Source of the DNA: Eledone cirrhosa
Lineage: Eukaryota
Length of the DNA stretch: 64,000 bases
NCBI GenBank assembly: GCA_964016885.1
Contig: OZ024761.1
Coordinates: 7,006,001 to 7,070,000, forward strand
Reading direction: 5' to 3'
Each line of letters begins with the position of its first letter. Position 1 is the stretch's first letter. A program made the position numbers and the translations under genes. The notes under the pieces were generated by a model. That model worked only from the letters and a program-made list of their open reading frames with translations. It searched no databases and was not told where the DNA came from. Below are positions 13,501 through 57,869 of this stretch, in pieces.

Positions 13501-15643
13501 GGTAGGAGTCTAACTCTTGTGTGATCTATTGATCTAGAGGGCTATACTGGTAGGAGTCTAACTCTTGTGTCATCTATTGATCTAGAGGGCTATACTGGTA
13601 GGAGTCTAACTCTTGTGTCATCTATTGATCTAGAGGGCTATACTGGTAGGAGTCTAACTCTTGTGTCATCTATTGATCTAGAGGGCTATACTGGCAGGAG
13701 TCTAACTCTTGTGTCATCTATTGATCTCGAGGGCTATACTGGCAGGAGTCTAACTCTTGTGTGATCTATTGATCTCGAGGGCTATACTGGTAGGAGTCTA
13801 ACTCTTGTGTCATCTATTGATCTAGAGGGCTATACTGGCAGGAGTCTAACTCTTGTGTGAACTATTGATCTAGAGGGCTATACTGGTAGGAGTCTAACTC
13901 TTGTGTCATCTATTGATCTAGAGGGCTATACTGGCAGGAGTCTAACTCTTGTGTCATCTAGTGATCTAGAGGGCTATACTGGCAGGAGTCTAACTCTTGT
14001 GTGAACTATTGATCTAGAGGGCTATACTGGTAGGAGTCTAACTCTTGTGTCATCTATTGATCTAGAGGGCTATACTGGCAGGAGTCTAACTCTTGTGTGA
14101 TCTATTGATCTCGAGGGCTATACTGGTAGGAGTCTAACTCTTGTGTCATCTATTGATCTAGAGGGCTATACTGGCAGGAGTCTAACTCTTGTGTGATCTA
14201 TTGATCTCGAGGGCTATACTGGCAGGAGTCTAACTCTTGTGTCATCTATTGATCTAGAGGGCTATACTGGCAGGAGTCTAACTCTTGTGTCATCTATTGA
14301 TCTAGAGGGCTATACTGGCTGGACTCTAACTCTTGATAAAGTTTATTTCAACACTGAAAGGGATGAACCTGACTAAATCTTTATTGCTAGAAGAGTAATC
14401 CTTAATATAATTAAAAAATCTAAAAATGTTTTAACCCATTCATGACCTAATGACATAGAATCTATTTCAATTAACTGATGAAGAATTTTGAGGAATTTAC
14501 TAAAATTATTAATTACTTCATTACTAAGATAGTTACTTAATGTAAGGATATTATAAAAATTTATGTTGGAAGATTTTAATTTAAATTGGAAAACTTTAAA
14601 ACGGGTGGTTTTATTTCATAGAACCAGAGTTGGTTTTGGCCGGGTTGGGAACGAAAGGGTTAAAGTGTTTATATTTATCTAAAAACCTTGATGCTTTGAT
14701 ACAAAGAGTTACGGCCCTTTCCATTCTGAGTTCTAATCCCGCCGAGGTTAACTTTGCCTTTCATCCTTACGGGGTCGATAAAATAAAGTACCAGTAATAC
14801 ACTGGAATAATTGCTGGCCTTGTTCCAAAAGTAGAAATTATTAATAATTTAATAACCTTTGTTAAGTTATGTTCCAAGCATCAACTTAATCCTTTTGATA
14901 CCAAACTCCAATTGAGTACTAACTTGGTCTACAATGACCCATCCAACCCATGCTAGCAGAGAAAAGAGACATTGAATGATGATGATGATGATAAACACTT
15001 TAAAATGAACAGCTTAGCATTGTAGTATGAGGGGCAGTTAGGGACCACAACTGATTATGAGAGTGGCAGTGTGAGGTGGGCTGTGACTATCTGTACTGGG
15101 TTTGAAACCCCACTGATACCTGGCCACAGGTAACGTAACTGATTATGAGAGTGGCAGTGTGTGGAGGAAGATTGAGGTGGGGGTGGGGGGGAGGTGATAG
15201 AGAACTTTAGTTTCAGTCTGATAGAAATTTCCTTGCTTCATCGACACAAACGAAATGTGACTCTATATTTAGGCATATGTGTTTATTATTCAGACAAAAT
15301 GGACAGAAGAAGAAACTGAATAATTACATCCAATTCCCCGAGGTGCTGGATATGACGGAGTATTTGAAAGATTCTGGTAGGAGTAATCTCTTGCTTTCAT
15401 CTTTTATCACAGTGTAGAACACAACATTTGTATCACACCATACCACACCACACTACACCACTCTACACTACATTGTATCACACCATACTACACCACATTG
15501 TATCACACCATACTACACCACATTGCACCACTCTACACTACATTGCGCTGCGCCACACCACACCACACCACATTGCACGACATCACACTGCACTACAGTA
15601 CAGCAAACCAAACCATTAAGTGTAGCAGCCCTGAGATGTGTTG

Positions 15644-20766: not shown

Positions 20767-23700
20767 TTTATGTTTAGTGGTTCACCTCTGGATAGAACTG
20801 GTCATTCTGTTTAGTTAATCATGATGTAATAGTAGGATAAGCACTCTACGTACGCAACTCGTCTAACATTGATGTTGAATCCTGTGGTTGGTATAGGACC
20901 ATAGTTAAATATTGGTTTGATTAAAACAGGGGACCGGACTGGTTATGTTCCTTTAATGTTTTGTTGCAAAAATACTATATTTCAATTGCCTGGTTACGTA
21001 AGATTCTAGTGACATCATCAGGTGTCTATTGCATAATTAGTTGATCAATAAAGGGATTACAGCATACACAAATAGAAAAAATATTTGATTCGGGGATGGC
21101 CTGCAATCTAGGTGTTATTGTTGTCGCAGACGATCCCCAAATGACTAGCTGTTGAATGCAAAGCATCGTAGGTTTGTTGGGCTAGTATAATGGGGACACA
21201 CATCCTGTTTTTATAGATACTACTATGCTGAAGGTAGCTGCACTGACCATAGCGACTGGAGCGGGGGCTTAGTACTGCGTGAAGATACTCTAGCCTAATC
21301 CAGCAAAGTGTAACGGTGAAGAATATCACGTTACTGTAGATAAGGAGCTCGGGTTATAGAATTCTAAAACATCCAACAAGAATATATAAAGCGTTTAAAA
21401 ATATAATGAAAGTTGGGTGTTAAATAAATGAACAAAAAGGAATTATGAAGACTAGATTACATACTAACTACCTTAACCCTTTAGCATTTACATTACTCTA
21501 TATATACTAATGTATTTTCACAGTAAAGGCTTTACCTCACATAATATCTCACATAACATTTACATTATTCTATATATACTATTGTATTTTCACAGTAAAT
21601 GCTTTACCTCACATAATATCTCACATAATATTTACATTACTCTATATATACTATTGTATTTTCACAGTAAAGGCTTTACCTCACATAATATCTCACATAA
21701 CATTTACATTACTCTATATATACTATTATATTTTCACAGTAAAGGCTTTACCTCACATAATATCTCTCATAACATTTACATTACTCTATATATACTAATG
21801 TATTTTCACAGTAAAGGCTTTACCTCACATAATATCTCACATACCATTTACATTACTCTATATATACTATTGTATTTTCACAGTAAAGGCATTACCTCAC
21901 ATAATATCTCTAACATTTACATTACTCTATATATACTAATGTATTTTCACAGTAAAGGCTTTACCTCACATAATATCTCTAACATTTACATTACTCTATA
22001 TATACTAATGTATTTTCACAGTAAAGGCTTTACCTCACATAATATCTCTAACATTTACATTACTCTATATATACTAATGTATTTTCACAGTAAAGGCTTT
22101 ACCTCACATAATATCTCTCATAACATTTACATTACTCTATATATACTAATGTATTTTCACAGTAAAGGCTTTACCTCACATAATATCTCTCATAACATTT
22201 ACATTACTCTATATATACTAATGTATTTTCACAGTAAAGGCATTACCTCACATAATATCGAATCTATGAGATTTTGATATTTATTTTGAGAACAAGTATG
22301 AGCAACTGGTTACGACCGGTTTGAACAGAAAAAGGTGAGAGAATTCTGGCCAGATATAGCTAGTTTAAATGCTAAAGGGTTAAGAAAAAAGTATAAATTA
22401 AAATTTAAAAAGTTTAAATTTAAATTAGAAACCATGTAAATTAGAGGTAAGTTTAGACAGAGTATAGGTATATACACCCACACACATATATGTGCACATA
22501 CACATGTACACACACAGTTGTTGTCTCTGTGGCCTAGCGGTAGGTCCTAGAGATGGTGGTGATCCTGGCCTTGGGTTCAATCTTGATCAAGAGGTGCATG
22601 TAACTTTTAGAAAAAAAAAAAAATGACCCCTTCCTTCCTCAACAATCTCTAGTGCATAACGGACAAATACACAAGTCTTTTATATTAGTAGATATTTTTA
22701 TTTCTTATTTCATTTCGAAATTCACTCACTGCCTAACATTTGATATAATTCTCTTGTACTATACAAGGACATACTACATAATAGGAACCCCAATGAGGGG
22801 TCAGAAAGGAACAAACCTCTGTTTTAGGTCTTTGTTAATTTTTTTTCTCATTTTTCTGTTGTTTTTTTTTCTTTGTTCTTCTTTCCTCCAAATCAATGAT
22901 CCGTCATGTCATTTGGTGATTAGTAACAGATGGCTCTAAACCTGTTGTGTATGACTTGAGTGCTGTCCTCATCCACCGAGGCATCAGTGCTTACAGTGGT
23001 CACTATATTGCCCACATCAAGGACCGGACTAGCCAGGCTTGGTATAAGTTCAATGACGAAGAGACGGAGCGTATGCAAGGACGTAACCTGCACCTGGGTA
23101 ACGAGGAGGAGGTTCATGTGCAAGGTGAGCAACTGTTGACGCAAATATCTCACTACCTTTCACACTTTTTCCTACTTCTTTTTTTCTGCATTTATTATCT
23201 CTCTCCCCCTCTCTCTCTGTGTCTCTCCCCCCCTCTTTCTCCCCCCTCTCTCTCTGCCCCCCCCCCTCTCTCTCTCTTATATACAACATATATATACAAT
23301 ATCAAGGCGGCAAATTGGCAGAGTCGTTGGAGCATCTGGTAGAGTGTTTTATGGCATTTGTTCCGACTCTCGGCTCTCTGAGTTCAAATCCCGCTCAGGT
23401 CAACTTTGCCTTTCATCCTTTCGAGGTCAATAAAAAAGTACCAGTCTAGTACTGGGGTCGATTCTTCCTCTATACCTCTGTCTCATGTCCTCTCTCTCAC
23501 TTTCTATCTTTCTCTGGAAGAAATCTGCTGTAGTGTGGCCTGGGGAGGGATGGGCTCCGCCAGGATTAAAATGCCCAAGAAACTCTGTATCCCAATATGG
23601 TGCCCTCCCTACAACTCCATCAGGAGTTACGGGACCATACCATATATATCAGTATCATCGCTTCCTTGCTTGCCCGGGTTAGACAGGTTATTACATTATG

Positions 23701-36692: not shown

Positions 36693-38795
36693 ACGTTTAA
36701 CGTCCGTGTTCCACGCTTGCATGGGTTTGGACGGGGGTAGTCCCACTTGAGGCAAGAGTGATTGTCTTGCTCGCATAGGACTGTCTGGCAGGTTTTCTAC
36801 AGTTGGATGCCCTTCCTAACACCAACCACATTTACAGTGTGGGTCTGGGAGGTTTTTACCGTGTTGCCTACACGGCCACATTACAGCGTGGACTGTGTGT
36901 TTTTTTGTCGTGACACCTACACGATCTCATTTGTTTCGGCCTGGATGGTGTGGCACGAATATATATGTATATGTATAAATATATGTATGTATGTATGTAT
37001 GTGTGTATATAGATGGAAAAGACAGCGGATTAGCTGTCGAAACGACTGGAGCTCGGCCGTCGGAGTCCTGACTCTTTTCCTATTACCCTAAGTATCGAGT
37101 ACTCTGGTGCGTTATGGTCCACTTGGTTCTTTACCGCACTTTCTTTGTTATATATATATATATATAAAAACTAAGATCCTCCCTTGCTCAGTATGTAGGA
37201 AAGGTGTAGGTAGGAATTCCATCCTCTGCCCCAAATGCAAACTATGGGTACACAAGAGATGTAGTGGGATCTCAGGAAGCTTCATTAACCCTTTAATCTT
37301 CAAACCGGCCAAAACTGGCCAGAATTCTCTACCTCTTTCTGTTGAAACTGGCTGTAACTGGTCACTCATACTGATGTTAAGGTATTGTTCTCAAAATAAA
37401 TACTTTCAAAATCTCATAGATTCGATATTATGTGAGATAATTATGCGAGATAAAGCCTTTACCATGAAAATATAATAGTATATATAATGTGAATGCTAAA
37501 GGGTTAAGAATGTAGGCTTTACATGTAGCAGCTGCACCAGGACAGTAAGCAGCAAACGACCACAGGAAACAAGCCCCACCAAACTCTGGGAGGGCTCTGT
37601 AGAAACAGTAGACAGCTTCTGCTACCTGGGTGACCAAATTAGCAGCGGAGCTGGGTGTTCTGAAAGTACAGTAACCAGGATAAGAACTGGATGGAAGAAG
37701 TTCAAGGAGCTACTGCCACTGCTAGCTGCAAAAGGCTTTTCCCTCAAAATGAAAGGCAGACTGTATGATGCATGCATACGAACGGCAATGTTACATGGAA
37801 GTGAGACCTGGGCGCTGTCTGTAGAAGACTTGCATAGATTAGAAAGAAATAAAGCTTGCATGTTCTGATGGATGTGAGATAGTAATATACGCGAAAGGCA
37901 AAGCATAAATGAATTGAGAGAGAGACAGCATAAGAGGAATCAAATGCTGTGTGCAGGAGAGGAGGTTGCATTGGTATGGACATGTGATGTGTATGAAGGA
38001 TGACAGCTGCATAAAAAGGTGCAGAGCACTAAAAGTTGATGGAAGCCGTGGAGTGGGGAGATCCAAGAAGACCTGGGATGAGGTGATAAAAGCTGACCTT
38101 GCACAATTGCACCTCTCAAAGGCGATGACACAGGACCGAGACCTCTGGCGTCACACAGTAATACAGAAGACCCGACTTCCCACGGGTACAAGCCGAAGCT
38201 GAAGCATATTGATAGTCTACCCCCAACACCTCCCACTGCAAAGTGGTCGTGTAGGCGTCACAGTAAAAAGAAGCACCCAGTACTCACTGTAAATGAGGTT
38301 GGCATTAGGAAAGGCATCCAGCTGTAGAAATCAAGCGAAAGTCAGTTCCATATGAACAAGACATGGTCACCTGACCTGGCATTGCCCACAACAGGACAAC
38401 CTGTCTAACCCTTGCTAGCGTGGAAGAACGGGCGTAAAATGGTGATGATGATATGTATCATGATCATCATCATCATTTAACGTCTATCTTCCACGCTAGC
38501 ATGGGTTAGACGGGAATTGTCCTACTTGAGGCAAGATTAGGCTGCTCAGCCGTTAATATGCATAAGGAAAGTATATACTTTCAGACGTTCAATCATCTGG
38601 CAGGAAGGTATACGTTGCTGACGATAGCTAATAAGCTTGAAACTAGTACATCGTTCCTTTGTCAGTGTTGAACAAAAGAGCAACGATGGTTGCTGGACAC
38701 TGTACGGCTTAATACGGGATGTTTGTTTACAAACACACCGAGCATTATAATAAATGTTCGGTGAATCCATACATACATATATATATGTGTGCATG

Positions 38796-43749: not shown

Positions 43750-46700
43750 GTCTATCTCTCTCTCTTTCTGTCTTTCTCTGTCTACTCTCTCTCTCTACTC
43801 TCCCCTTCTCCCCCTCTCTCCCAGTTTATATATATCTATGTATGTATATCTCTCTGTATGTGTGTGTATTTAACACCTTTCTATCTCACCCTATCTTTAT
43901 TTATGCATGTGTACGTAGATATATTGGACATACACGCCTGGGCGGCGTGTCACAGCTTGAGATTGGTGTGGGGGGTCAGACCTTCGTTAAGACCTGAAGA
44001 TCCGTCTCTTCGTTGCTGTAGTGGAGTATGTTCTGCTGTACGGGTCTGAGACTTGGACACTGACCAAGAAACTCACTCAGATGGTGGATGGGTGCTACAC
44101 GAGAGTGCTGAGGATGGCTCTGAACATTAATCAGTATACACTGAGGATGAAGAACTCAGAGCTGTATGGGAGCCTCCCAAAAGTCAGCTCAGAAGTGACA
44201 CAGAGGAGACTGAGGTTGGCTGGACATGCTCACCGACATCCAGAGTTGACACTGCACTCAGTGCTCCTATGGCATCCCCACAGTGTTAGAAACTTTACCA
44301 CACACAGGGATATGGTGCACAATAGTATATATAAAGTAATGTAAATGTTGTGAGATATTATGTGAGGTAAAGCCTTTACTGTGAAAATACAATAGTACAT
44401 ATAGAGTAATGTAAATGTTATGTGAGGTAAAGCCTTTACTGTGAAAATACAATAGTATATATAGAGTAATGTAAATATTGTGAGATAAAGCCTTTACTGT
44501 GAAAATACAATAGTACATATAGAGTAATGTAAATGTTATGTGAGGTAAAGCCTTTACTGTGAAAATACAATAGTACATATAGAGTAATGTAAATATTATG
44601 AGATAAAGCCTTTACTGTGAAAATACAATAGTACATATAGAGTAATGTAAATGTTATGTGAGGTAAAGCCTTTACTGTGAAAATACAATAGTATATATAG
44701 AGTAATGTAAATGTTATGTGAGGTAAAGCCTTTACTGTGAAAATACAATAGTATATATAGAGTAATGTAAATGTTATGCGAGGTAAAGCCTTTACTGTGA
44801 AAATACAATAGTACATATAGAGTAATGTAAATGTTATGTGAGGTAAAGCCTTTACTGTGAAAATACAATAGTACATATAGAGTAATGTAAATGTTATGTG
44901 AGGTAAAGCCTTTACTGTGAAAATACAATAGTACATATAGAGTAATGTAAATGTTATGTGAGGTAAAGCCTTTACTGTGAAAATACAATAGTATATATAG
45001 AGTAATGTAAATATTGTGAGATAAAGCCTTTACTGTGAAAATACAATAGTACATATAGAGTAATGTAAATGTTATGTGAGGTAAAGCCTTTACTGTGAAA
45101 ATACAATAGTACATATAGAGTAATGTAAATATTATGAGATAAAGCCTTTACTGTGAAAATACAATAGTACATATAGAGTAATGTAAATGTTATGTGAGGT
45201 AAAGCCTTTACTGTGAAAATACAATAGTATATATAGAGTAATGTAAATGTTATGTGAGGTAAAGCCTTTACTGTGAAAATACAATAGTATATATAGAGTA
45301 ATGTAAATGTTATGCGAGGTAAAGCCTTTACTGTGAAAATACAATAGTACATATAGAGTAATGTAAATGTTATGTGAGGTAAAGCCTTTACTGTGAAAAT
45401 ACAATAGTACATATAGAGTAATGTAAATGTTATGTGAGGTAAAGCCTTTACTGTGAAAATACAATAGTACATATAGAGTAATGTAAATACTAAATAATTA
45501 ATAGGCCAAGGTTACTGCTATCTGATTTTTTATTTAAAAACAATTTTTTATTGTGGCTCCATAGGACTGAGATGTACGACTAATTCTAAATCTTACTCCA
45601 TACGTCATCCTTTTTCCTTTCACATATATACAAGATGAGTTATAAATAAGCGGACAGTTCAACATTTTATTCCAAATGATAATCTATCTATCTATTACTA
45701 AAACTCTGTGATAGCTTGCTTGAAATGTCATACAGCCAAAAGGGTGCATAATGGGGAAAATACTTTGAAAGGAAGTTGACCCTGAAATGGGAATACAGAT
45801 GGAATAAGACCAGTTTTTCATAAATCGGAGCACGGGTTCCCGACATATGGGGTTTTTCTAGGTAACTTCGTAAACCGAGAGAGAGTAAGAGATAGTGGTT
45901 GTGAGAGAGTAGATTGAAAGAGACATAGAGAGAGGGTGATGAGACAGAGAAGGAGAATGGAAGAGAGAGAGAGAGCTGGTGGTGGTGTTGTTGTGTGTGT
46001 ATATATATATATATGTGTATGTCTATGACCAGTGTATATAGATCAGACACCCACATATATATATACATATATATATACACACACACACATACACATATAT
46101 GTATACAAACACATACATTTATATATATACACACACACACACATATATATATATATGTATACACACGCACTCACATACATACACACACGTATATATATGG
46201 GCCTTCCAGTTTCATTTCACACTATATACATGTCTGTATATTTTAATTATTTAAAAATTATTTTTAAGTGAACAGGATTTTTTTAGAAATATTTTGAAGT
46301 GAACGTCACCCAACGGTCATGGGTGGTTTACTATTATTCTCATTCAGTATGGAACTATAAATATATCAAACAAAAGTAGTTAAAAATATAATTAGTGTTT
46401 GAAAAACTGACCCCCGTTCTCCAATATATTTTGAAGTGGATGTTCAAAAGGTTATCTGTGAACATTGAAATACATCGACTGCTCGGTTACTTATGACTCA
46501 CTCTGTATTTCGATGATTTATCTCCCCTTACCTCGCTCTCTTTCACCCTCTTTCTATCTCACCCGCTCTCTTTCACTCTCTTTCTATCTCACCCTCTCTC
46601 TCTCTCTCCTGCAGGTTAAACCCTAATATGGTATCCAAATTAAAGTTTGTCAACAGTGAAGGTGTGAGTAAAATTAACTTAATTGCTTTGTTGTTATTGT

Positions 46701-52500: not shown

Positions 52501-53570
52501 CTCTCTCTCCTGTCTACCATGGTCTCTCTCTCTCTCCTGTCTACCATGGTGTCTCTCTCTCTCTCTCCTGTCTACCATAGTGTCTCTCTCTCTCTCTCCT
52601 GTCTACCATGGTGTCTCTCTCTCTCTCTCCTGTCTACCATGGTCTCTCTCTCTCTCCTGTCTACCATAGTGTCTCTCTCTCTCTCTCTCCTGTCTACCAT
52701 GGTGTCTCTCTCTCTCTCTCCTGTCTACCATGTGTGAGTCTGTCTACTATAGTCTGTGCATGTGTCCACCATGGTGTTTATCTACCATGGTGTGTGTGTG
52801 TTTGCTGCTCTCCCACTCTCCCCTTTCACTAATACCACCACTCCCCCCTTTCACTAATACCACTACTCGCTCCTCTCACTACTACCACTACTCTCCTCCT
52901 CCTCTCACTACTACCACTACTCTCCTCCTCCTCTCACTACTACCACTACTCTCCCCCTCTCACTACTACCACTACTCTCCCCCTCCTCTCACTACTACCA
53001 CCACTCTCACTACTACCACTACTCCCCCCTCCTCTCACTACTACCACTACTCCCCCCTCCTCTCACTACTACCACTACCCCTTCCTCTCACTACTACCAC
53101 TACTCTCCCCCTCCTCTCATTACAGAGCTGAATGTTACTGGGTTGGGAAGTCATCGTTCCGAAGATGGAGGAAGTTGATGGCTGAGAAGCTGGAGGAAGC
53201 TAAGAGATATAATTCTGACACTGCTGCTGCTGCTGCTGTTGCTGCTGAAAACAATGATGGTGGTGCTGGTGGTGATGATGAAGACGACGACGAGGAGGAT
53301 GATGATGATGACAGTAGCTCAAAAGGAGGTAGCTCTCACACCCTTCTATTGTCATCTCCCCCTCCTCACTTATTTCCAGATATTTCAGGTCTCTATGGTC
53401 ACATTGAATTGTTGCTTAGCTCCCTCCCTCCCTCCCTCCTGTCTTCCTCCAGTTGCAACGTTTTTTTAAATATTCACTTCTGCATTCACAGATTGACTTT
53501 GTTAGTTTCAGAAGATCCCGTTAAGGGTGAAAGCAGCGATTCTTTGCTTAAACTTTAATCTGTTATTTTA

Positions 53571-53602
<32 letters not shown>

Positions 53603-54233
53603 GCTGCATGGTAGTTAGACATGGGCAGCAACTGCAGAGGATATGCGACTGCTGGAGAGAAATGAGGCAAGCATGCTCCGTTGGATGTGCAGTGTCAATG
53701 TGCGTGAACGGCCCAGCATAAATGTGTTGAGAGAGAAACTGTGTCTGAGAGGGATAGAATGTAGTGTACGGGAGAGGAGACTGAGGTGGTATGGACATGT
53801 GATGCGCATGGAGGATGACCGATGGGTGAAGAAGTGCCAGGAAATGCCAGTTGAAGGAAGACGTGGTAGAGGTAGACCACGAAAAACATGGGCGGAGGTG
53901 GTGAGAACAGACCTCAGATCATTGAAGCTCACGGTGGAGATGACGAAGGACCATGACAAGTGGAGAGATGCTGTGCTGAATAAGACCCGTCCCACCCTTG
54001 CAAGCAGGGAAGAACGGACGTAAAATGATGATGATGATGATGATGATATATATATCCAGTGGGTGTAACTAGGAGTTACATTTTCTTATAGCATTTTAAG
54101 AGCGTCCGTCGAGCCGCCGATTATTGAGTCGGGTAGGATCGATATAGATCGAACCTTGAGCTGATCAGTGGCAAAACGTGCGTCACCTATCAATAAATGC
54201 AATGAAGGAGTAATCAATCGTCCTTGTTATCCT

Positions 54234-54286
<53 letters not shown>

Positions 54287-54502
54287 ATATTAACAAAATA
54301 GATATTCTTGTGATCAAGTATATTTTATTATACATATTTCAGAGGTACTGAGTTAAGTTCAACAGTACGTCCTCATCAGATAAAATAAGATGATGCATGA
54401 CATACCCTGACATAGTAGATGGTTAAGATTCAGTCATGGTAGTGCTTCCAATCTATTGTAAAACTCATTCTTTGATTTATTCATTGAACCTTGTTTATCT
54501 TT

Positions 54503-54570
<68 letters not shown>

Positions 54571-55108
54571 TAATAAATGGAAACTATATTTACAAAACCA
54601 TAATTATTTTATTATATATATTTCAAGGGCAACCAAGACAAATTATGGTGCGCAGATAAAATACAGATTTGTTTTATAAATAAATATTGACATGGAGGCA
54701 CATGGCTTAGTGGTTAGAGCATTGGGCTTGCAATCGTAAGGTTGTGAGTTCAATTCTCAGACCGGGGTGATGTGTTGTTTCCTTGAGCAAGACACTTTAT
54801 TTCACATTGCTCCAGTTTACTCAGCTGTAGAAATGAGATGATAGGACTGGGGTCCATATCATTCCACTGCAAAGTGGTCGTGGAGGTGCCACAGAAAAAA
54901 AAGCACCCAGCACTCACTGTAAATGAGGTTGGTGTTAGGAAGCGCAACCAGCTGTAGAAATCAAGCCAGAATCAGTTCCCGTCCCACCCTTGCAAGCAGG
55001 GAAAAGCGGACGTAAAATGATGATGATGATGATGATACCCGGAAAAAAGCAACCTTAATGGTTGAAGTTTGCTGGATAGTTGAATCCCAACAAATTAAAT
55101 ATAACCTC

Positions 55109-55178
<70 letters not shown>

Positions 55179-57845
55179 TGTTGGATGCTTAAAGCGTCCG
55201 TATGCGGCAGGCCGTATAAGCACTCGATGCTCTCATAGAGCAGAGTATGATATCACAGAAAAAAAGAGAATCAGTGGTGCGACGAATGGAATTTATTGGA
55301 CATATTACAATCATTTCTCTGGCAACCAGCTCGAGGCACGATTGATGTGATGATCGAACCTGACTCTGAAAATCGCAAGGTCCTCAGATTTGGAAAACAA
55401 TGACATGATTATTTTTGAATAAATTAGTGGTTTATTTCGCTCGTGAGTTTTTGAATTAAAGGGCGTGTTAATTTTTTATAAATTTGATCGTTCAAGTAAA
55501 CGTTGCGCGTAAATGCCGATTGTTTTTTTCGTAATTTCCAATCATTTAGCGAATTTGTAATTTTCAGTTTCGTAGTGTCGTTTTTTCGGTATATGAACCC
55601 CCTCCCCCGAAAATAAGCTGTAGTGGTACATTTCCTCATTCGTAAAATCGTAAATATCTTCCATGATGTTTTTATGGCTTTTTTCATGCTTTTTAACACT
55701 AAATTATTAATAACAATAATATACCATATTTGCTGGCCTATATTTAACGTTATATATTGACATAGGCATTTATATGGACCACGTCCAATATTCACGGTTT
55801 TTCACTCTTTGCGGGGTTTACATTCCTAGAGCACCCGCGACAACGGGTACAACTGTATATATTAAATCTCCCCCTATTTGTCCATTAGGTGGTGACTGTC
55901 CATCCGACAATTCCAATAAATGGTCTGAAGAAACAGGTTTCAACAATGACCTTCTCTGTAACACACACAGTAAGTTACTCTGCTGCTGCTTCTTCTTCTT
56001 CTTGCTATTGTCAAAACTAGCATGTGTCTGTGTGATATGCATATGTGTTGTTTTTGTATATGTATGGCTGTTACCTGGGTGACGAAATCAGCAGTGGTGG
56101 AGGGTGTTCTGAAAGTACAGTAGCCAGAGTCAGAACGGGATGGAAAAAGTTCAGAGAGCTTATACCACTTATGGCGACTAAAGGTTTCTCTCTAAAAATG
56201 AAAGGCAGATTGTATGATGCCTGTATACGAACAGCAATGCTACATGGCAGTGGGACATGGGCATTACGTGCAGAGGACTTGCGTAGACTGGAAAGGAACG
56301 AAGCATGCATGCTCCGTTGGATGTGTAATAGTAATATACGTGAACGGCAAAGCATAAATGAACTAAGTGAGAAATTAGGAATAAGAGGGATCAGATGCTG
56401 TTTACTTGGGAGAAGACTACATTGGTATGGCCATGTGATGCACATGAAAGACGACAGCTGTATAAAAAAGTGCAGGGCGATCAAAATTTATGGTGGTTAC
56501 GGAGTAGGTAGACCCAGAAAAATCTGGGACGATCTGATAAATTCCGACCTTACACACTTGCACCTCTCTGAGACAATGTCATTGGACCGAGATCTTTGGT
56601 GCTACGCAGTAATACAGAAGACCCGCCTTGCCTATGTACAAAGCGAAACCTACAGTCAGTAGGCACCTCTTAACCAAATATACACCCCTGTCCCACTACC
56701 CCTACCCTATCCTCCCACTCCCACAAACACCACCCTCTCTCTGTAAAGTTGGTACCACAACATCCAGTCCAAATAAATGAGATAATGAGATCGAGATCGT
56801 GTAGGTGTCACGAGAAAAAAATACAGTCCACGCTGTAATGTGGTCATGTAGGTAACACGGTAAAAAGTTCCCAGTTCCACACTGTAAATGTGGTTGGTGT
56901 TAGGAAGGGCATCCAGCCGTAGAAAACCTGCCAGACAGTCCTATATGAGCGAGACACGGTCACCCGACCAACCTTGCCTCAAGTGGGACAACTCCCGTCT
57001 AACCCATGCTAGCGTGGAAAATGGACGTTAAATGAAGATGATGATGGTGGAAAATTTGGCAAAGTCGTTAGAACGTTGGATAGAATGCTTTAAGGTATTT
57101 GTTCTGGTTCTCTGAGTTCAAATCCCGCCGAGGTCAAGTTTGCCTTTCATCCTATCGAGGTCTATAAAAAAGTACCAGTCTAGTACTGGGGTCGATTCTT
57201 GCTCTCTCTGGAAGCAATCTGCAGTAGTGAGGCCTGGAGAGGGATAGGCTCCACCAGATGCAAAATGCCTGAAAAACTCTCTATGTCAATACGGTGCCTT
57301 ACAACCCCATCAGGGGTTACGGGACCATACCATATCATATACAATGTATGGCGGTGAATTTGACAAAGTTGTCAGAAAGTCGGATAAAATGCTTTATGGT
57401 ATCCATTTTGGCCCTCTGCTCCCTGAGTTCAAATCCCGCTGAGGTCAACTTTGCTTTTCATCCTTTTGAGGTCGATATCTCTCTCTGGAAGAAATCTGCT
57501 ATATTCAGGCCTGGAGAGGAGACGGGATGCGCCAGGTTTAAAAAATCTCAATATTGCCCTACAACGGTCACCCGACCAACCTTGCCTCAAGTGGGATAAC
57601 TCCCGTCTAACCCATGCTAGCGTGGAAGATAGACGTTAACGAAGAAGATGATGAACTCCCTCAGTTGTTACGGGACAATGCATATACAATGTTTGTATCG
57701 TATTTTTAACTCAATTCCAGGGTCTCTCAATCCAGAAGTTAGCTGTCGTCGGTTGGTGCCACAAGATGTCTGGGAAATTCTCCGTTCCTATTTTCCAAAA
57801 TGTCCTGAATTCCAGCGTGATGTTCCTGTTTGTGCCAAATGTGTG
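5044..57845 (+). CDS. USP48: USP48-like ubiquitin carboxyl-terminal hydrolase, partial multi-exon gene (15 exons in window; start and stop outside)
   Basis: Exons join in frame with consistent phases and GT-AG ends. Motifs: (QQ)[82 protein letters not shown], then USP48-type DUSP-region motifs ([47 protein letters not shown]). Orthology is recognised from memory of the vertebrate protein, not from a search. Confidence 0.92.
5270..6490 (+). mobile_element. Decayed RTE LINE 3' part (subfamily B), interrupted by a SINE
   Basis: [31 protein letters not shown]...LGIRGIRC remnants. Confidence 0.88.
5872..6180 (-). mobile_element. tRNA/CORE-type SINE with RTE tail
   Basis: Reverse complement of 54694-55035. 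Confidence 0.88.
6799..6907 (+). CDS. USP48: USP48 exon (109 nt, phase 2->0) [21 protein letters not shown]...EFLQ
   Basis: tttcag|CTGTAG ... TTACAG|gtgagt. Confidence 0.93.
6977..9162. mobile_element. piggyBac-type MITE with internal 72-bp tandem expansion (about 6985-8648) and nested SINE
   Basis: TTAA|CCCTTTAACATT ... AATGCTAAAGGG|TTAA; 24-aa periodicity of spurious ORFs corresponds to a 72-bp unit. Confidence 0.88.
8650..8978 (+). mobile_element. Full-length tRNA-headed CORE-type SINE with RTE-derived 3' part
   Basis: Pol III A box TGGCTTAGTGG, B box GAGTTCAATCC, CORE-like ccttgagcaaggcacttt...cagtttactcagctgtagaaatggg, (GAT)n tail, possible TSD atact. Confidence 0.88.
9692..9875 (+). 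mobile_element. SINE family 2 (tRNA-like head; gcctttcatccttacggggtcgataaaataaagtacc central domain). Other copies at about 10030-10150, 14700-14845, 23305-23465, 25790-25980, 25988-26180, 30505-30690(-), 30806-30995, 46710-46850, 46865-47085, 57045-57200, 57348-57475
   Basis: B box GAGTTCAAATCC; more than 10 dispersed copies; central domain resembles the Meta/Sauria-SINE domain from memory. Confidence 0.82.
10182..10450 (-). mobile_element. RTE reverse-transcriptase fragment
   Basis: [10 protein letters not shown]...[13 protein letters not shown]...KLGVEEW. Confidence 0.88.
10535..10668 (+). CDS. USP48: USP48 exon (134 nt, phase 0->2) [15 protein letters not shown]...RFVFDK
   Basis: ggcag|GAAGAG ... 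GACAA|gtatgt. Confidence 0.93.
10782..10986. mobile_element. piggyBac-type MITE (about 205 bp)
   Basis: TTAA|CCCTTTAGCATTCA ... TGAACACTAAAGGG|TTAA. Confidence 0.88.
11508..11712. mobile_element. piggyBac-type MITE (about 205 bp)
   Basis: TTAA|CCCTTTAGCATTT ... AAATGCTAAAGGG|TTAA. Confidence 0.9.
11741..14335. repeat. 48-bp minisatellite (gtgtgatctattgatctagagggctatactggtaggagtctaactctt), about 54 units
   Basis: Direct periodicity; 16-aa repeat in spurious ORFs. Confidence 0.97.
14435..14659. mobile_element. Second piggyBac-type MITE family
   Basis: TTAA|CCCATTCATGACC ... GGGAACGAAAGGG|TTAA, imperfect TIRs. Confidence 0.6.
15294..15376 (+). CDS. USP48: USP48 exon (83 nt, phase 2->1) [27 protein letters not shown]
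   Basis: ttcag|ACAAAAT ... TTCTG|gtagga; not in the ORF track, found by reading; FPEVLDM is the USP FPxxLDM motif. Confidence 0.9.
15672..15948 (+). mobile_element. 5'-truncated tRNA/CORE-type SINE in (TA)n
   Basis: Matches 54720-55035. Confidence 0.88.
15966..19274 (-). mobile_element. Near-full-length RTE-clade LINE: about 190-nt 5'UTR, single ORF 19082->15996 (APE endonuclease, RT, PHD-type finger), (GAT)n tail
   Basis: [33 protein letters not shown] (APE); [30 protein letters not shown] (RT); the two listed ORFs are in one frame separated by a single TAG at 17214-17216. Confidence 0.96.
21477..22379. mobile_element. piggyBac-type MITE with 72/69-bp internal tandem expansion
   Basis: TTAA|CCCTTTAGCATTT ... 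AATGCTAAAGGG|TTAA; same unit as the 6985-8648 array. Confidence 0.9.
22930..23124 (+). CDS. USP48: USP48 exon (195 nt, phase 1->1), His box GHYIAHI and WYKFNDE
   Basis: aacag|ATGGCT ... GCAAG|gtgagc; catalytic His and Asn/Asp motifs. Confidence 0.93.
24048..25765 (+). repeat. 46-bp minisatellite (acaacaaaagacacccaccatactgtaaagtggttgtgtaggtgtc), about 34 units, ending in an RTE-type SINE tail
   Basis: Direct periodicity; 25610-25765 continues as aaagcacccagtactcactgtaaatgaggttgg...aactatgatgatga. Confidence 0.93.
26483..26596 (+). CDS. USP48: USP48 exon (114 nt, phase 1->1) ...[17 protein letters not shown]
   Basis: ttctag|AAAGTA ... GGCTG|gtaaat; AYMLVY ends the USP domain. Confidence 0.9.
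26620..27805. repeat. About 29-32-bp minisatellite (taggatatcagggtgttggtggt[tgt]ggtctg)
   Basis: Direct periodicity, starting about 25 nt after a splice donor. Confidence 0.93.
27916..28650. repeat. 26-bp minisatellite (aaaacatgggaaggttttatgttgta)
   Basis: Direct periodicity. Confidence 0.93.
28879..28997 (+). CDS. USP48: USP48 exon (119 nt, phase 1->0) [39 protein letters not shown]
   Basis: tgccag|CCAATA ... ATGAGG|gtgaga; supplies the phase change needed between neighbouring exons; not in ORF track. Confidence 0.88.
29452..30737 (+). mobile_element. Internally deleted piggyBac transposon with transposase N-terminal remnant (about 29721-30330) and nested SINE
   Basis: TTAA|CCCTTTAGTGTTCA ... 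TGAATGCTAAAGGG|TTAA; acidic N-terminus, [24 protein letters not shown], then frameshifted [15 protein letters not shown] / [29 protein letters not shown], typical of PGBD4-like transposases. Confidence 0.88.
31020..33445 (+). mobile_element. Decayed RTE LINE (subfamily B), multiple frameshifts and stops
   Basis: [53 protein letters not shown] remnants. Confidence 0.93.
33795..36470 (-). mobile_element. Decayed 5'-truncated RTE LINE (subfamily A) with internal insertion
   Basis: ORFs 35554-36492, 35103-35489 and 33806-34366 are collinear with the 15966-19274 element; YANDL in place of YADDL. Confidence 0.94.
34640..35133. mobile_element. Probable solo LTR (494 bp) nested in the RTE
   Basis: Interrupts RTE collinearity; CTAC duplicated at 34636-34639 and 35134-35137; ends TTTAGAAG...CTTGCTACA (decayed TGTAG...CTACA). 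Confidence 0.55.
36526..36601 (+). CDS. USP48: USP48 exon (76 nt, phase 0->1) [25 protein letters not shown]
   Basis: pyrimidine tract+ttcag|GACCAA ... AAGGGA|gtaagt. Confidence 0.88.
37170..38205 (+). mobile_element. Decayed RTE LINE 3' part, interrupted by a MITE
   Basis: [29 protein letters not shown]; [10 protein letters not shown]... Confidence 0.88.
37289..37503. mobile_element. piggyBac-type MITE, opposite orientation to 10782 and 11508
   Basis: TTAA|CCCTTT ... AATGCTAAAGGG|TTAA. Confidence 0.88.
38612..38654 (+). ncRNA. Candidate type I minimal hammerhead ribozyme
   Basis: ACGTTG CTGACGA T AGCT aata AGCT T GAAA CTAG TA^ CATCGT: full core, helix II, palindromic CTAG helix III, GUA cleavage triplet, helix I with 5 of 6 pairs. 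Confidence 0.6.
40968..41125 (+). mobile_element. Short RTE 3' fragment
   Basis: [18 protein letters not shown]...[10 protein letters not shown]. Confidence 0.85.
41365..43272. repeat. About 17-bp AT-rich minisatellite (tctagtgtatatatatt / tctaatgtatatatatt)
   Basis: Direct periodicity, ending about 30 nt before a splice acceptor. Confidence 0.95.
43304..43415 (+). CDS. USP48: USP48 exon (112 nt, phase 1->2) [36 protein letters not shown]
   Basis: caacag|ATGTTC ... AGCAG|gtattt; DUSP-like WLxxW and IxN..LC.H. Confidence 0.9.
43450..43820. repeat. (TC)n/(TCTG)n microsatellite
   Basis: Direct reading. Confidence 0.95.
44015..44282 (+). mobile_element. Fragment of a different RTE-group LINE
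   Basis: [18 protein letters not shown]...[13 protein letters not shown]...RRLRLAGH; a plausible 3' end of a similar element with (GAT)n tail lies at about 47090-47246. Confidence 0.8.
44319..45493. repeat. 60/58-bp tandem array derived from the piggyBac MITE end (reverse orientation), with a 536-bp higher-order repeat
   Basis: Reverse complement of the 72-bp unit minus 12 bp; identical ORF translations offset by 536 (44436 vs 44972). Confidence 0.92.
46615..46663 (+). CDS. USP48: USP48 exon (49 nt, phase 2->0) [16 protein letters not shown]
   Basis: cctgcag|GTTAAA ... GAAGGT|gtgagt. Confidence 0.85.
47459..47505 (+). CDS. USP48: USP48 exon (47 nt, phase 0->2) [15 protein letters not shown]
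   Basis: ttgcag|GCTGCT ... CTTGG|gtaagt; GGPRL motif. Confidence 0.88.
47900..48241 (+). mobile_element. Full-length tRNA/CORE-type SINE with RTE tail
   Basis: A and B boxes, CORE-like body, (GAT)n tail. Confidence 0.9.
49314..49430 (+). CDS. USP48: USP48 exon (117 nt, phase 2->2) [38 protein letters not shown]
   Basis: gtacag|GGAGGA ... GACTC|gtaagt. Confidence 0.88.
49440..52790. repeat. Minisatellite cctgtctaccatggtgt + variable (CT)n, about 3.3 kb
   Basis: Direct reading; starts 9 nt after a splice donor. Confidence 0.96.
52860..53120. repeat. About 27-bp C-rich repeat (ctcctctcactactaccactactctcc) up to the acceptor
   Basis: Direct reading. Confidence 0.85.
53126..53328 (+). CDS. USP48: USP48 exon (203 nt, phase 2->1) [17 protein letters not shown]... 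with poly-Ala and acidic tract
   Basis: ttacag|AGCTGA ... AGGAG|gtagct; the donor is weak but its phase fits the next exon. Confidence 0.82.
53601..54046 (+). mobile_element. Young 5'-truncated RTE copy in (TA)n
   Basis: Protein nearly identical to the C-terminus of ORF 15996-17168; (GAT)n tail. Confidence 0.94.
54321..54387 (-). ncRNA. Candidate type I hammerhead ribozyme
   Basis: Minus strand: TATTTTAT CTGATGA GGACGTACTG ttgaacttaact CAGTACCTCT GAAA TATGTA TA^ ATAAAATA; 8-bp helix I, helix II with 9 of 10 pairs, self-complementary helix III. Confidence 0.7.
54694..55035 (+). mobile_element. Full-length tRNA/CORE-type SINE with RTE tail
   Basis: A box TGGCTTAGTGG, B box GAGTTCAATTC, tail cccacccttgcaagcagggaaaagcggacgtaaaatgatgatgat identical to the RTE 3' end. 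Confidence 0.92.
55889..55969 (+). CDS. USP48: USP48 exon (81 nt, phase 1->1) [26 protein letters not shown]
   Basis: cattag|GTGGTG ... CACACA|gtaagt. Confidence 0.85.
56070..56690 (+). mobile_element. RTE LINE 3' part (subfamily B)
   Basis: [30 protein letters not shown]...RRLHWYGHV. Confidence 0.92.
57721..57845 (+). CDS. USP48: USP48 exon (125 nt, phase 1->0) [41 protein letters not shown]
   Basis: ttccag|GGTCTC ... TGTGTG|gtaaga. Confidence 0.92.
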
Positions 57846-57869
57846 GTAAGAATTTCACATTTTCTTCAA

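Follow-up and report, generated by a model that had tools for sequence, protein, structure and literature searches.

Penelope-like elements (PLEs) of the Hydra clade are marked, in the parts of the published account drawn on here, by DKT and RWK motifs, a CxCx5C linker, a GIY-YIG-type domain without CCHH, (TA)n targets and hammerheads (PMC8557442). A Hydra family from Octopus bimaculoides, Hydra-1_Obim, has been described (Craig et al. 2021, PMC8557442). The minimal hammerhead motifs of PLEs have low activity, and a conditional processing or regulatory role has been argued for them (PMC4209133). The Poseidon PLE nicks and extends both strands in vitro, and its reverse transcription starts at two sites bounding the tail; uncleaved RNA serves as the template, hammerhead cleavage is dispensable and the hammerhead cuts only with protein, as far as the sections of that report used here go (PMC11167929). 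Penelope of D. virilis likely has an internal promoter, according to the portion of the source we draw on (PMC2377424).

The DNA studied here is a stretch of 64,000 nucleotides from Eledone cirrhosa (contig OZ024761.1, positions 7,006,001 to 7,070,000), called the window below, to which all coordinates refer. An earlier note had placed on its minus strand a minimal type I hammerhead with an 8-bp helix I, both core boxes, a long helix II and a palindromic helix III, cleaving after AUA. Reading the strand letter by letter, we found every claimed part at its claimed position within 54387-54321: the CUGANGA and GAAA boxes, the NUH site and helices I and II of a type I hammerhead are all present, and helix III is self-complementary. 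The segment that carries the motif consists of two arms joined head to head and sharing AGTG. Read in the sense of the parent element, the hammerhead is followed by site I, 46 nt after the cut, by a tail of about 100 nt and by terminus T; the I-arm of the window copy ends about 5 nt short of the usual I end. Tracts of (TA)n lie on both sides, as the earlier note had observed. The features are:

54237-54282, no strand: left (TA)n target tract; the (TA)n run is called over 54237-54290
54283-54444, minus: I-arm, 162 nt of pseudo-LTR, from a stop about 165 nt upstream of I, through the hammerhead, to I
54321-54387, minus: type I minimal hammerhead motif, predicted cut between 54329 and 54328
54387-54380, minus: helix I 5′ strand, 8 bp with 54328-54321
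54379-54373, minus: CUGAUGA core box
54372-54363 and 54350-54341, minus: helix II, 10 positions, G-U closing pair, C-C at position 4, 12-nt loop
54340-54337, minus: GAAA core box
54330-54337, minus: self-complementary helix III segment with UAUGUA, 8 nt, two G-U pairs in the predicted dimer duplex
54330 and 54329, minus: U16.1 and A17
54328-54321, minus: helix I 3′ strand
54441-54444, no strand: AGTG, the 4-nt microhomology joining the arms
54441-54505, plus: T-arm, last 65 nt of the tail of about 100 nt, ending at terminus T
54506-54564, no strand: right (TA)n target tract; the (TA)n run is called over 54506-54570
54565-54693, minus: arm of sister family B, a separate insertion in the same TA tract, 91% identical to locus L115, decayed, CUGAUGA box partly deleted

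The Rfam check proposed in the earlier note came out negative, the hammerhead models giving no match at E<=1 in 53500-55500. Single-sequence folding of the motif gave modest z-scores of −0.6 to −2.1. By energy evaluation the monomer is less favourable by 3.5 kcal/mol when helix III is closed than when it is open, and helix I, which is out-competed in its context, reaches a probability of at most 0.06 there. The window copy is predicted to be a weak ribozyme as a monomer. Since Rfam misses the motif and single-sequence folding is only mildly significant, the proof of the hammerhead is comparative.

A genome search and a covariation test, both suggested in the earlier note, showed many dispersed copies with a covarying helix II and not a single-copy sequence; the stretch with the motif gave 54 matches from 40 scored of 55 candidates. 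A pattern of the core boxes with flanks matched the genome exactly at 15,028 places and its reversed control at 0; as this is one tight intact-core pattern, the genome holds at least 15,028 such motifs. In 28 distinct motifs, hand-picked to span the variants seen among 105 distinct ones, 90.7% of 616 cells pair, cells being sequences and not events; none of 500 shuffles was as high, and slid controls gave 36-53%. The motifs were found via the core, so that core conservation is itself not evidence. Eight of the ten helix II pairs show double changes in these 28 motifs, and the helix covaries across sister families. Its position 4 (54369 and 54344, minus strand) is unpaired in 28/28 motifs with covarying neighbours, possibly owing to a protein or tertiary contact. 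Helix III occurs in three sequence versions, all self-complementary, and 98.2% of its cells pair; pair 64-67 changes from A-U to G-C in four rows of family D, a double change which, being confined to one family, counts as one event. Covariation of helix II across sister families, together with the lasting self-complementarity of helix III, leads us to take the hammerhead fold to be under selection. The motif at 54387-54321 is confirmed as real and not a chance occurrence.

Longer genomic copies, including L031 and L033, carry an ORF and then an AT-rich 3′ UTR of about 2 kb upstream of the same hammerhead. Their order is pseudo-LTR (hammerhead, site I, 100-nt tail, site T), 5′ UTR, ORF, 3′ UTR, hammerhead and end, with a unit length of 4.7 kb; L119 measures 4,596 nt from the 5′ UTR to I, plus tail. 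In 12 tandem copies the junction between the upstream pseudo-LTR and the 5′ UTR is nearly fixed. The copies of the element include pseudo-LTR tandems and inverted 5′ copies, and they show the one-ended tail, insertion into (TA)n and the 3′ hammerhead. The best open frame has 750 residues (L052), and no fully intact ORF was seen among the 30 of 119 matches examined. The ORF has the order RT, linker, putative endonuclease. The motifs RWR, KSDKT, LYRDD, CxCx5C, VYKC..YIG and CxxC..E..N..E..CxH are found in L116, L119, L123 and L126; RWR stands in place of RWK in all four of these loci, and DKT in place of DKG in L116, L119 and L126. The C-terminal VYKC..YIG domain is without CCHH and has CxxC and CxH near E and N.

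Pfam gave no domain match for the ORF and two relatives, and a PDB sequence search with a 50-protein profile gave 0 matches. An AlphaFold model of the L052 frame is confident (pLDDT 81), and telomerase RT is its best structural match, with Foldseek at E 1.6e-9 and VIA-align at a Z of 17.2 and an rmsd of 2.8 (262 aligned). The endonuclease region folded as a single sequence with a pLDDT of 39; its motif content and order match the GIY-YIG type, and the C-terminal domain is a putative GIY-YIG-type domain, identified by motifs only. Relatives of the protein are 31-40% identical and mostly unnamed; the named ones come from a bryozoan, a coral and Argonauta. Related ORF pieces are also found upstream of the hammerheads of sister families B and D (L115, L159, L127, L138).

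The window segment is, with little doubt, a remnant of a Hydra-clade PLE, the clade being placed by protein motifs, (TA)n insertion and the 3′ hammerhead. The element is a family distinct from Hydra-1_Obim of Octopus bimaculoides on comparison of hammerhead and protein by eye. The link to Penelope and the (TA)n-targeting mobile element proposed in the earlier note are borne out by an ORF with a telomerase-like RT linked to the same hammerhead; of the linked RT and GIY-YIG ORFs for which it advised searching, the RT was recovered with a structural match and the GIY-YIG-type domain through its motifs. The description of the element as unannotated does not hold for its kind, as Hydra-clade PLEs with hammerheads and (TA)n targets appear in the consulted part of PMC8557442, including the one from Octopus bimaculoides. 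Metagenome and Logan contigs of 2.2-3 kb often carry Hydra-like ORFs of about 700 residues (P0001-P0120), nearly all unnamed, and the Hydra clade is therefore much larger than the published set.

Within the window no element protein was detected by tblastn. A USP gene lies on the plus strand, with a UCH match at 22812-23081 and a weak DUSP match at 57696-57848 (E 0.056); we take it to be USP48, with an exon at about 53130-53190. The motif had been called antisense to USP48; the antisense orientation to a USP gene stands, and the gene is probably USP48. Since the ribozyme strand is antisense, the USP pre-mRNA would not be cut in cis. The window copy is likely inert, as it lies antisense in an intron and the host pre-mRNA is without the ribozyme.

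Several other features of the window were recorded. At 54703-54760 (plus) there is a tRNA-like head of 26.7 bits, below the Rfam threshold, which is probably a tRNA-derived SINE adjoining the family-B arm. A second, unrelated minimal hammerhead at 38612-38658 (plus) has a 4-bp helix II, a palindromic helix III and one helix I mismatch. Its pattern has 24,198 exact genome matches (control 0), many in head-to-tail runs with a spacing of about 420-490 bp; it is a retrozyme-like family, whose copy here is on the same strand as the USP gene. C-terminal fragments of LINE ORFs, presumably RTE-like, lie at 53619-54023 and 56036-56662 (plus). Related minisatellite arrays of 72 bp and 60 bp occupy 6982-8649, 21485-22259 and 44358-45488, the last on the opposite strand. 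UCH-domain matches are also dispersed through the genome in open frames of 1,000-2,245 residues with near-identical scores (among them G000 C2:253901738, C5:5374255 and C13:18827712), likely a transposon family carrying a ubiquitin-protease domain.

To describe how copies end, several partly overlapping samples were used. Sites I and T both run into ATAT, and both lie in predicted hairpins. Among 20 ORF-bearing loci 14 were two-ended, 13 of them T+I and one T+T. Loci picked by the hammerhead (35 loci with 38 insertions, scored by eye) gave 20 two-ended insertions, 19 T+I and one I+I; the remaining 18/38 had one arm only or were unclear. Exact end patterns occur genome-wide as 1,559 T and 1,501 I ends, and among the first 100 T and 91 I ends listed 19/20 outward-facing pairs were mixed (binomial p 2e-5 versus even chance). 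In T-anchored loci (36 of 40 examined) the partner ended cleanly at I in 14, nearly so in 2 and at T in 2, while 1 was unclear and 17 were without a visible partner end. In I-anchored loci (14 of 20 examined) the partner was at T in 6 and at I in 1. The samples of outward pairs, anchored loci and arm stops overlap. Exceptions to the rule are L127, L171 and L188 (T/T) and L165 and L211 (I/I).

Partner arms start at I-158 to I-166 in 11 of the 36 T-anchored loci, as does the arm in the window, and stops in this interval are also seen in 3/40 T-arms and 3/20 I-arms. No arm ended within 10 nt of the cut (I-46) among 60 arms except one at −36, and neither pile-up nor scar was found at the cut site in the examined arms and motifs. 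The tail and the UTR upstream of I-165 share homology, which may favour the junction of the window copy; it does not explain the pile-up near I-165, since partner arms stop there whatever the length of the T-arm. Stops of T-arms in the tail are spread from +67 to −5 (14/40). A sharp strong stop of T-arms at a hypervariable tail spot, suggested by the first loci, was rejected for this spread. The spot itself, 4-9 nt about 25-35 nt after site I and just outside window position 54441, is often T-rich and was distinct in 54 of 60 cases. Nearest neighbours by flank differ by 5% in the flanks versus 27% at the spot, and the two tails of one insertion differ there in L112, L113, L127 and L171 and agree in L115 and L190.

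We consider it probable that the window segment is a 5′-truncated and internally inverted Hydra-clade PLE insertion, made by nicking of both strands and reverse transcription primed at two sites on uncleaved RNA. The pairing of I and T ends suggests twin priming, to which, as a component of this reading, we incline somewhat. The element protein would nick both strands of the (TA)n tract, and each nicked TA strand would pair with AUAU at I or T, so that reverse transcription would be primed at two fixed sites. One nicked strand would prime at I, and its cDNA would run off the RNA 5′ end to give the 162-nt arm; the other would prime at T and stall in the tail to give the 65-nt arm, after which the two cDNA ends would be joined by microhomology into the minimal cassette. 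The stop near I-165 would then be the RNA 5′ end set by an internal promoter in the pseudo-LTR; that it is the transcription start we rate at even chances. For longer arms, priming would have to take place at the 3′ copy of I, or a template jump would have to occur. The hammerhead may be catalytic only with a second copy (helix III duplex) or the element's protein present, and its role would then be that of a conditional site for processing or regulation. Cleaved RNA would not be the main template, as no arm ends pile up at the cut. Against simple twin priming stands the frequent overlap of arms in the RNA; strand displacement or a second RNA would be needed. The rule observed here also implies one site per strand, whereas for Poseidon in vitro the pertinent sections report no strand difference in start site and no target homology (PMC11167929). 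A more complete version is tentative: every insertion would be twin-primed, with T on one strand and I on the other, from uncleaved RNA; I-165 would mark an LTR-like strong-stop cDNA; the tail spot would be rewritten at nearly every insertion; and the palindromic helix III may hold two RNAs that feed a protein dimer, which would explain the head-to-head arms.

Fold-back of one cDNA as the general source of inversion was rejected, since the long arm often lacks the tail (L033, L118, L120, L122, L124). An unlikely course of events starts from circular or pseudo-circular RNA: the hammerheads of both pseudo-LTRs would release a unit RNA, ligated or held by helix I, that is copied for more than one round, and the endonuclease would trim the tail from one arm at resolution. 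Circles have been proposed for PLEs (PMC4209133), and the tail has been attributed to resolution by the endonuclease (PMC8557442), both in the parts of these papers used here. Upstream pseudo-LTRs often reach far beyond the cut and beyond I-165, for which reason this model stays a rival, and the inherited junction of T with the 5′ UTR needs a circle, a read-through RNA or template jumps. Against the model, arms pile up at I-158 to I-166, whereas a circle would offer no 5′ end. No arm ends pile up at the cut; Poseidon insertion in vitro was unaffected by hammerhead mutants in the experiments consulted (PMC11167929), and non-overlapping arms such as those of the window copy are unexplained without two primings.

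That the PLE machinery copies the 223-bp cassette as a non-autonomous mobile unit in its own right, of retrozyme or MITE-like kind, we regard as very improbable. About 8 of the best 30 genome matches share the same or nearly the same junction, but a chimeric query enriches such matches. Cassettes with the window-type junction account for 11/97 arms, and the tree forces at least 3 origins for them and most simply 8; a single clade was rejected (p-AU 1e-56). They carry variants diagnostic of different ORF-bearing subfamilies, and the cassette has a single hammerhead and no head-to-tail array, unlike retrozymes as portrayed in the available part of PMC7229834. Since the same junction recurs in different subfamilies and a single clade is rejected, the cassette is a recurrent by-product and not a mobile unit. 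The segment of about 220 bp, which the earlier note had taken for the mobile element or retrozyme, is two truncated arms of a 4.7-kb autonomous PLE, head to head. Still more remote is a host function, with the motif co-opted for regulation of the USP gene by way of an antisense transcript. The core is intact and the motif lies between two exon-like stretches of the gene; an intact core is, however, expected of a young copy (the window arm shares 99.4% identity with the pseudo-LTR of ORF-bearing L126), at least 15,028 such motifs exist, the ribozyme lies on the antisense strand and the monomer fold is unfavourable.

Taken by itself the window locus is an ordinary dead fragment; the family is of greater importance. 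One genome holds at least 15,028 intact-core hammerheads of Hydra-type families, and the clade to which they belong is known from few families and missed by Pfam and Rfam. The T/I rule, the I-165 stop, the absence of ends at the cut site and the hypervariable tail spot provide exact coordinates for in vitro tests. These data bear on the inverted, one-tailed insertion of PLEs and on the role of their hammerheads, questions raised in the portions consulted of PMC8557442 and PMC11167929. If the twin-priming reading is true, thousands of copies form a genomic record of the PLE insertion mechanism. The element is of a known kind and a new family, and its end statistics are a testable refinement of the PLE mechanism. 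We found no publication on the family or on the one-site-per-end rule in the PLE, hammerhead and cephalopod literature, mostly that which is openly accessible.

The comparisons that follow apply to those parts of the cited sources that we used. With Hydra-clade PLEs (PMC8557442) the element shares the motifs of a C-terminal GIY-YIG-type domain without CCHH, DKT, CxCx5C, and CxxC and CxH around E and N, as well as the 3′ hammerhead, (TA)n targets, tandem and inverted copies and the one-ended tail. It has RWR where the clade has RWK, and is 4.7 kb long where less than 3 kb is typical, a tendency and not diagnostic; its tail is about 100 nt, and 30-40 nt is given for PLEs. Against Hydra-1_Obim, hammerhead sequence and protein differ in a comparison by eye with the published supplement; that family is 2.5 kb and listed with no pseudo-LTRs, whereas the element here has a 2-kb 3′ UTR within its 4.7 kb, clear pseudo-LTRs and a long helix II whose mismatch is fixed. 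With minimal type I PLE hammerheads (Cervera and De la Pena 2014, PMC4209133) it has in common the pseudo-LTR location, the long helix II, the palindromic helix III, the predicted dimer and thousands of solo and opposite-strand copies. Helix I is 8 bp here and typically 4-5 there, in most rows here helix II has G-U or A-U at its base, where G10.1-C11.1 stands there, and our motifs are without the extra nucleotide after A9 and have the unpaired position 4 of helix II.

Anolis Poseidon (Frangieh et al. 2024, PMC11167929) likewise has two start sites, which flank the tail and lie in stem-loops downstream of the hammerhead; in our element these are deduced from genomic ends. Nicking and extension of both strands and an uncleaved RNA template are proposed for the element here and come from in vitro work there. 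Poseidon belongs to another clade, and its sites lie inside the ORF with a few to tens of nt between them, with no strand preference or target homology reported in the sections used; the sites here are about 100 nt apart, both meet ATAT, and one is used per insertion end. Non-LTR retrozymes (PMC7229834) share the type I hammerhead, low GC and an animal genome, but are head-to-tail non-coding repeats of 150-450 bp with canonical hammerheads, whereas the window copy is a single truncated piece of a coding element.
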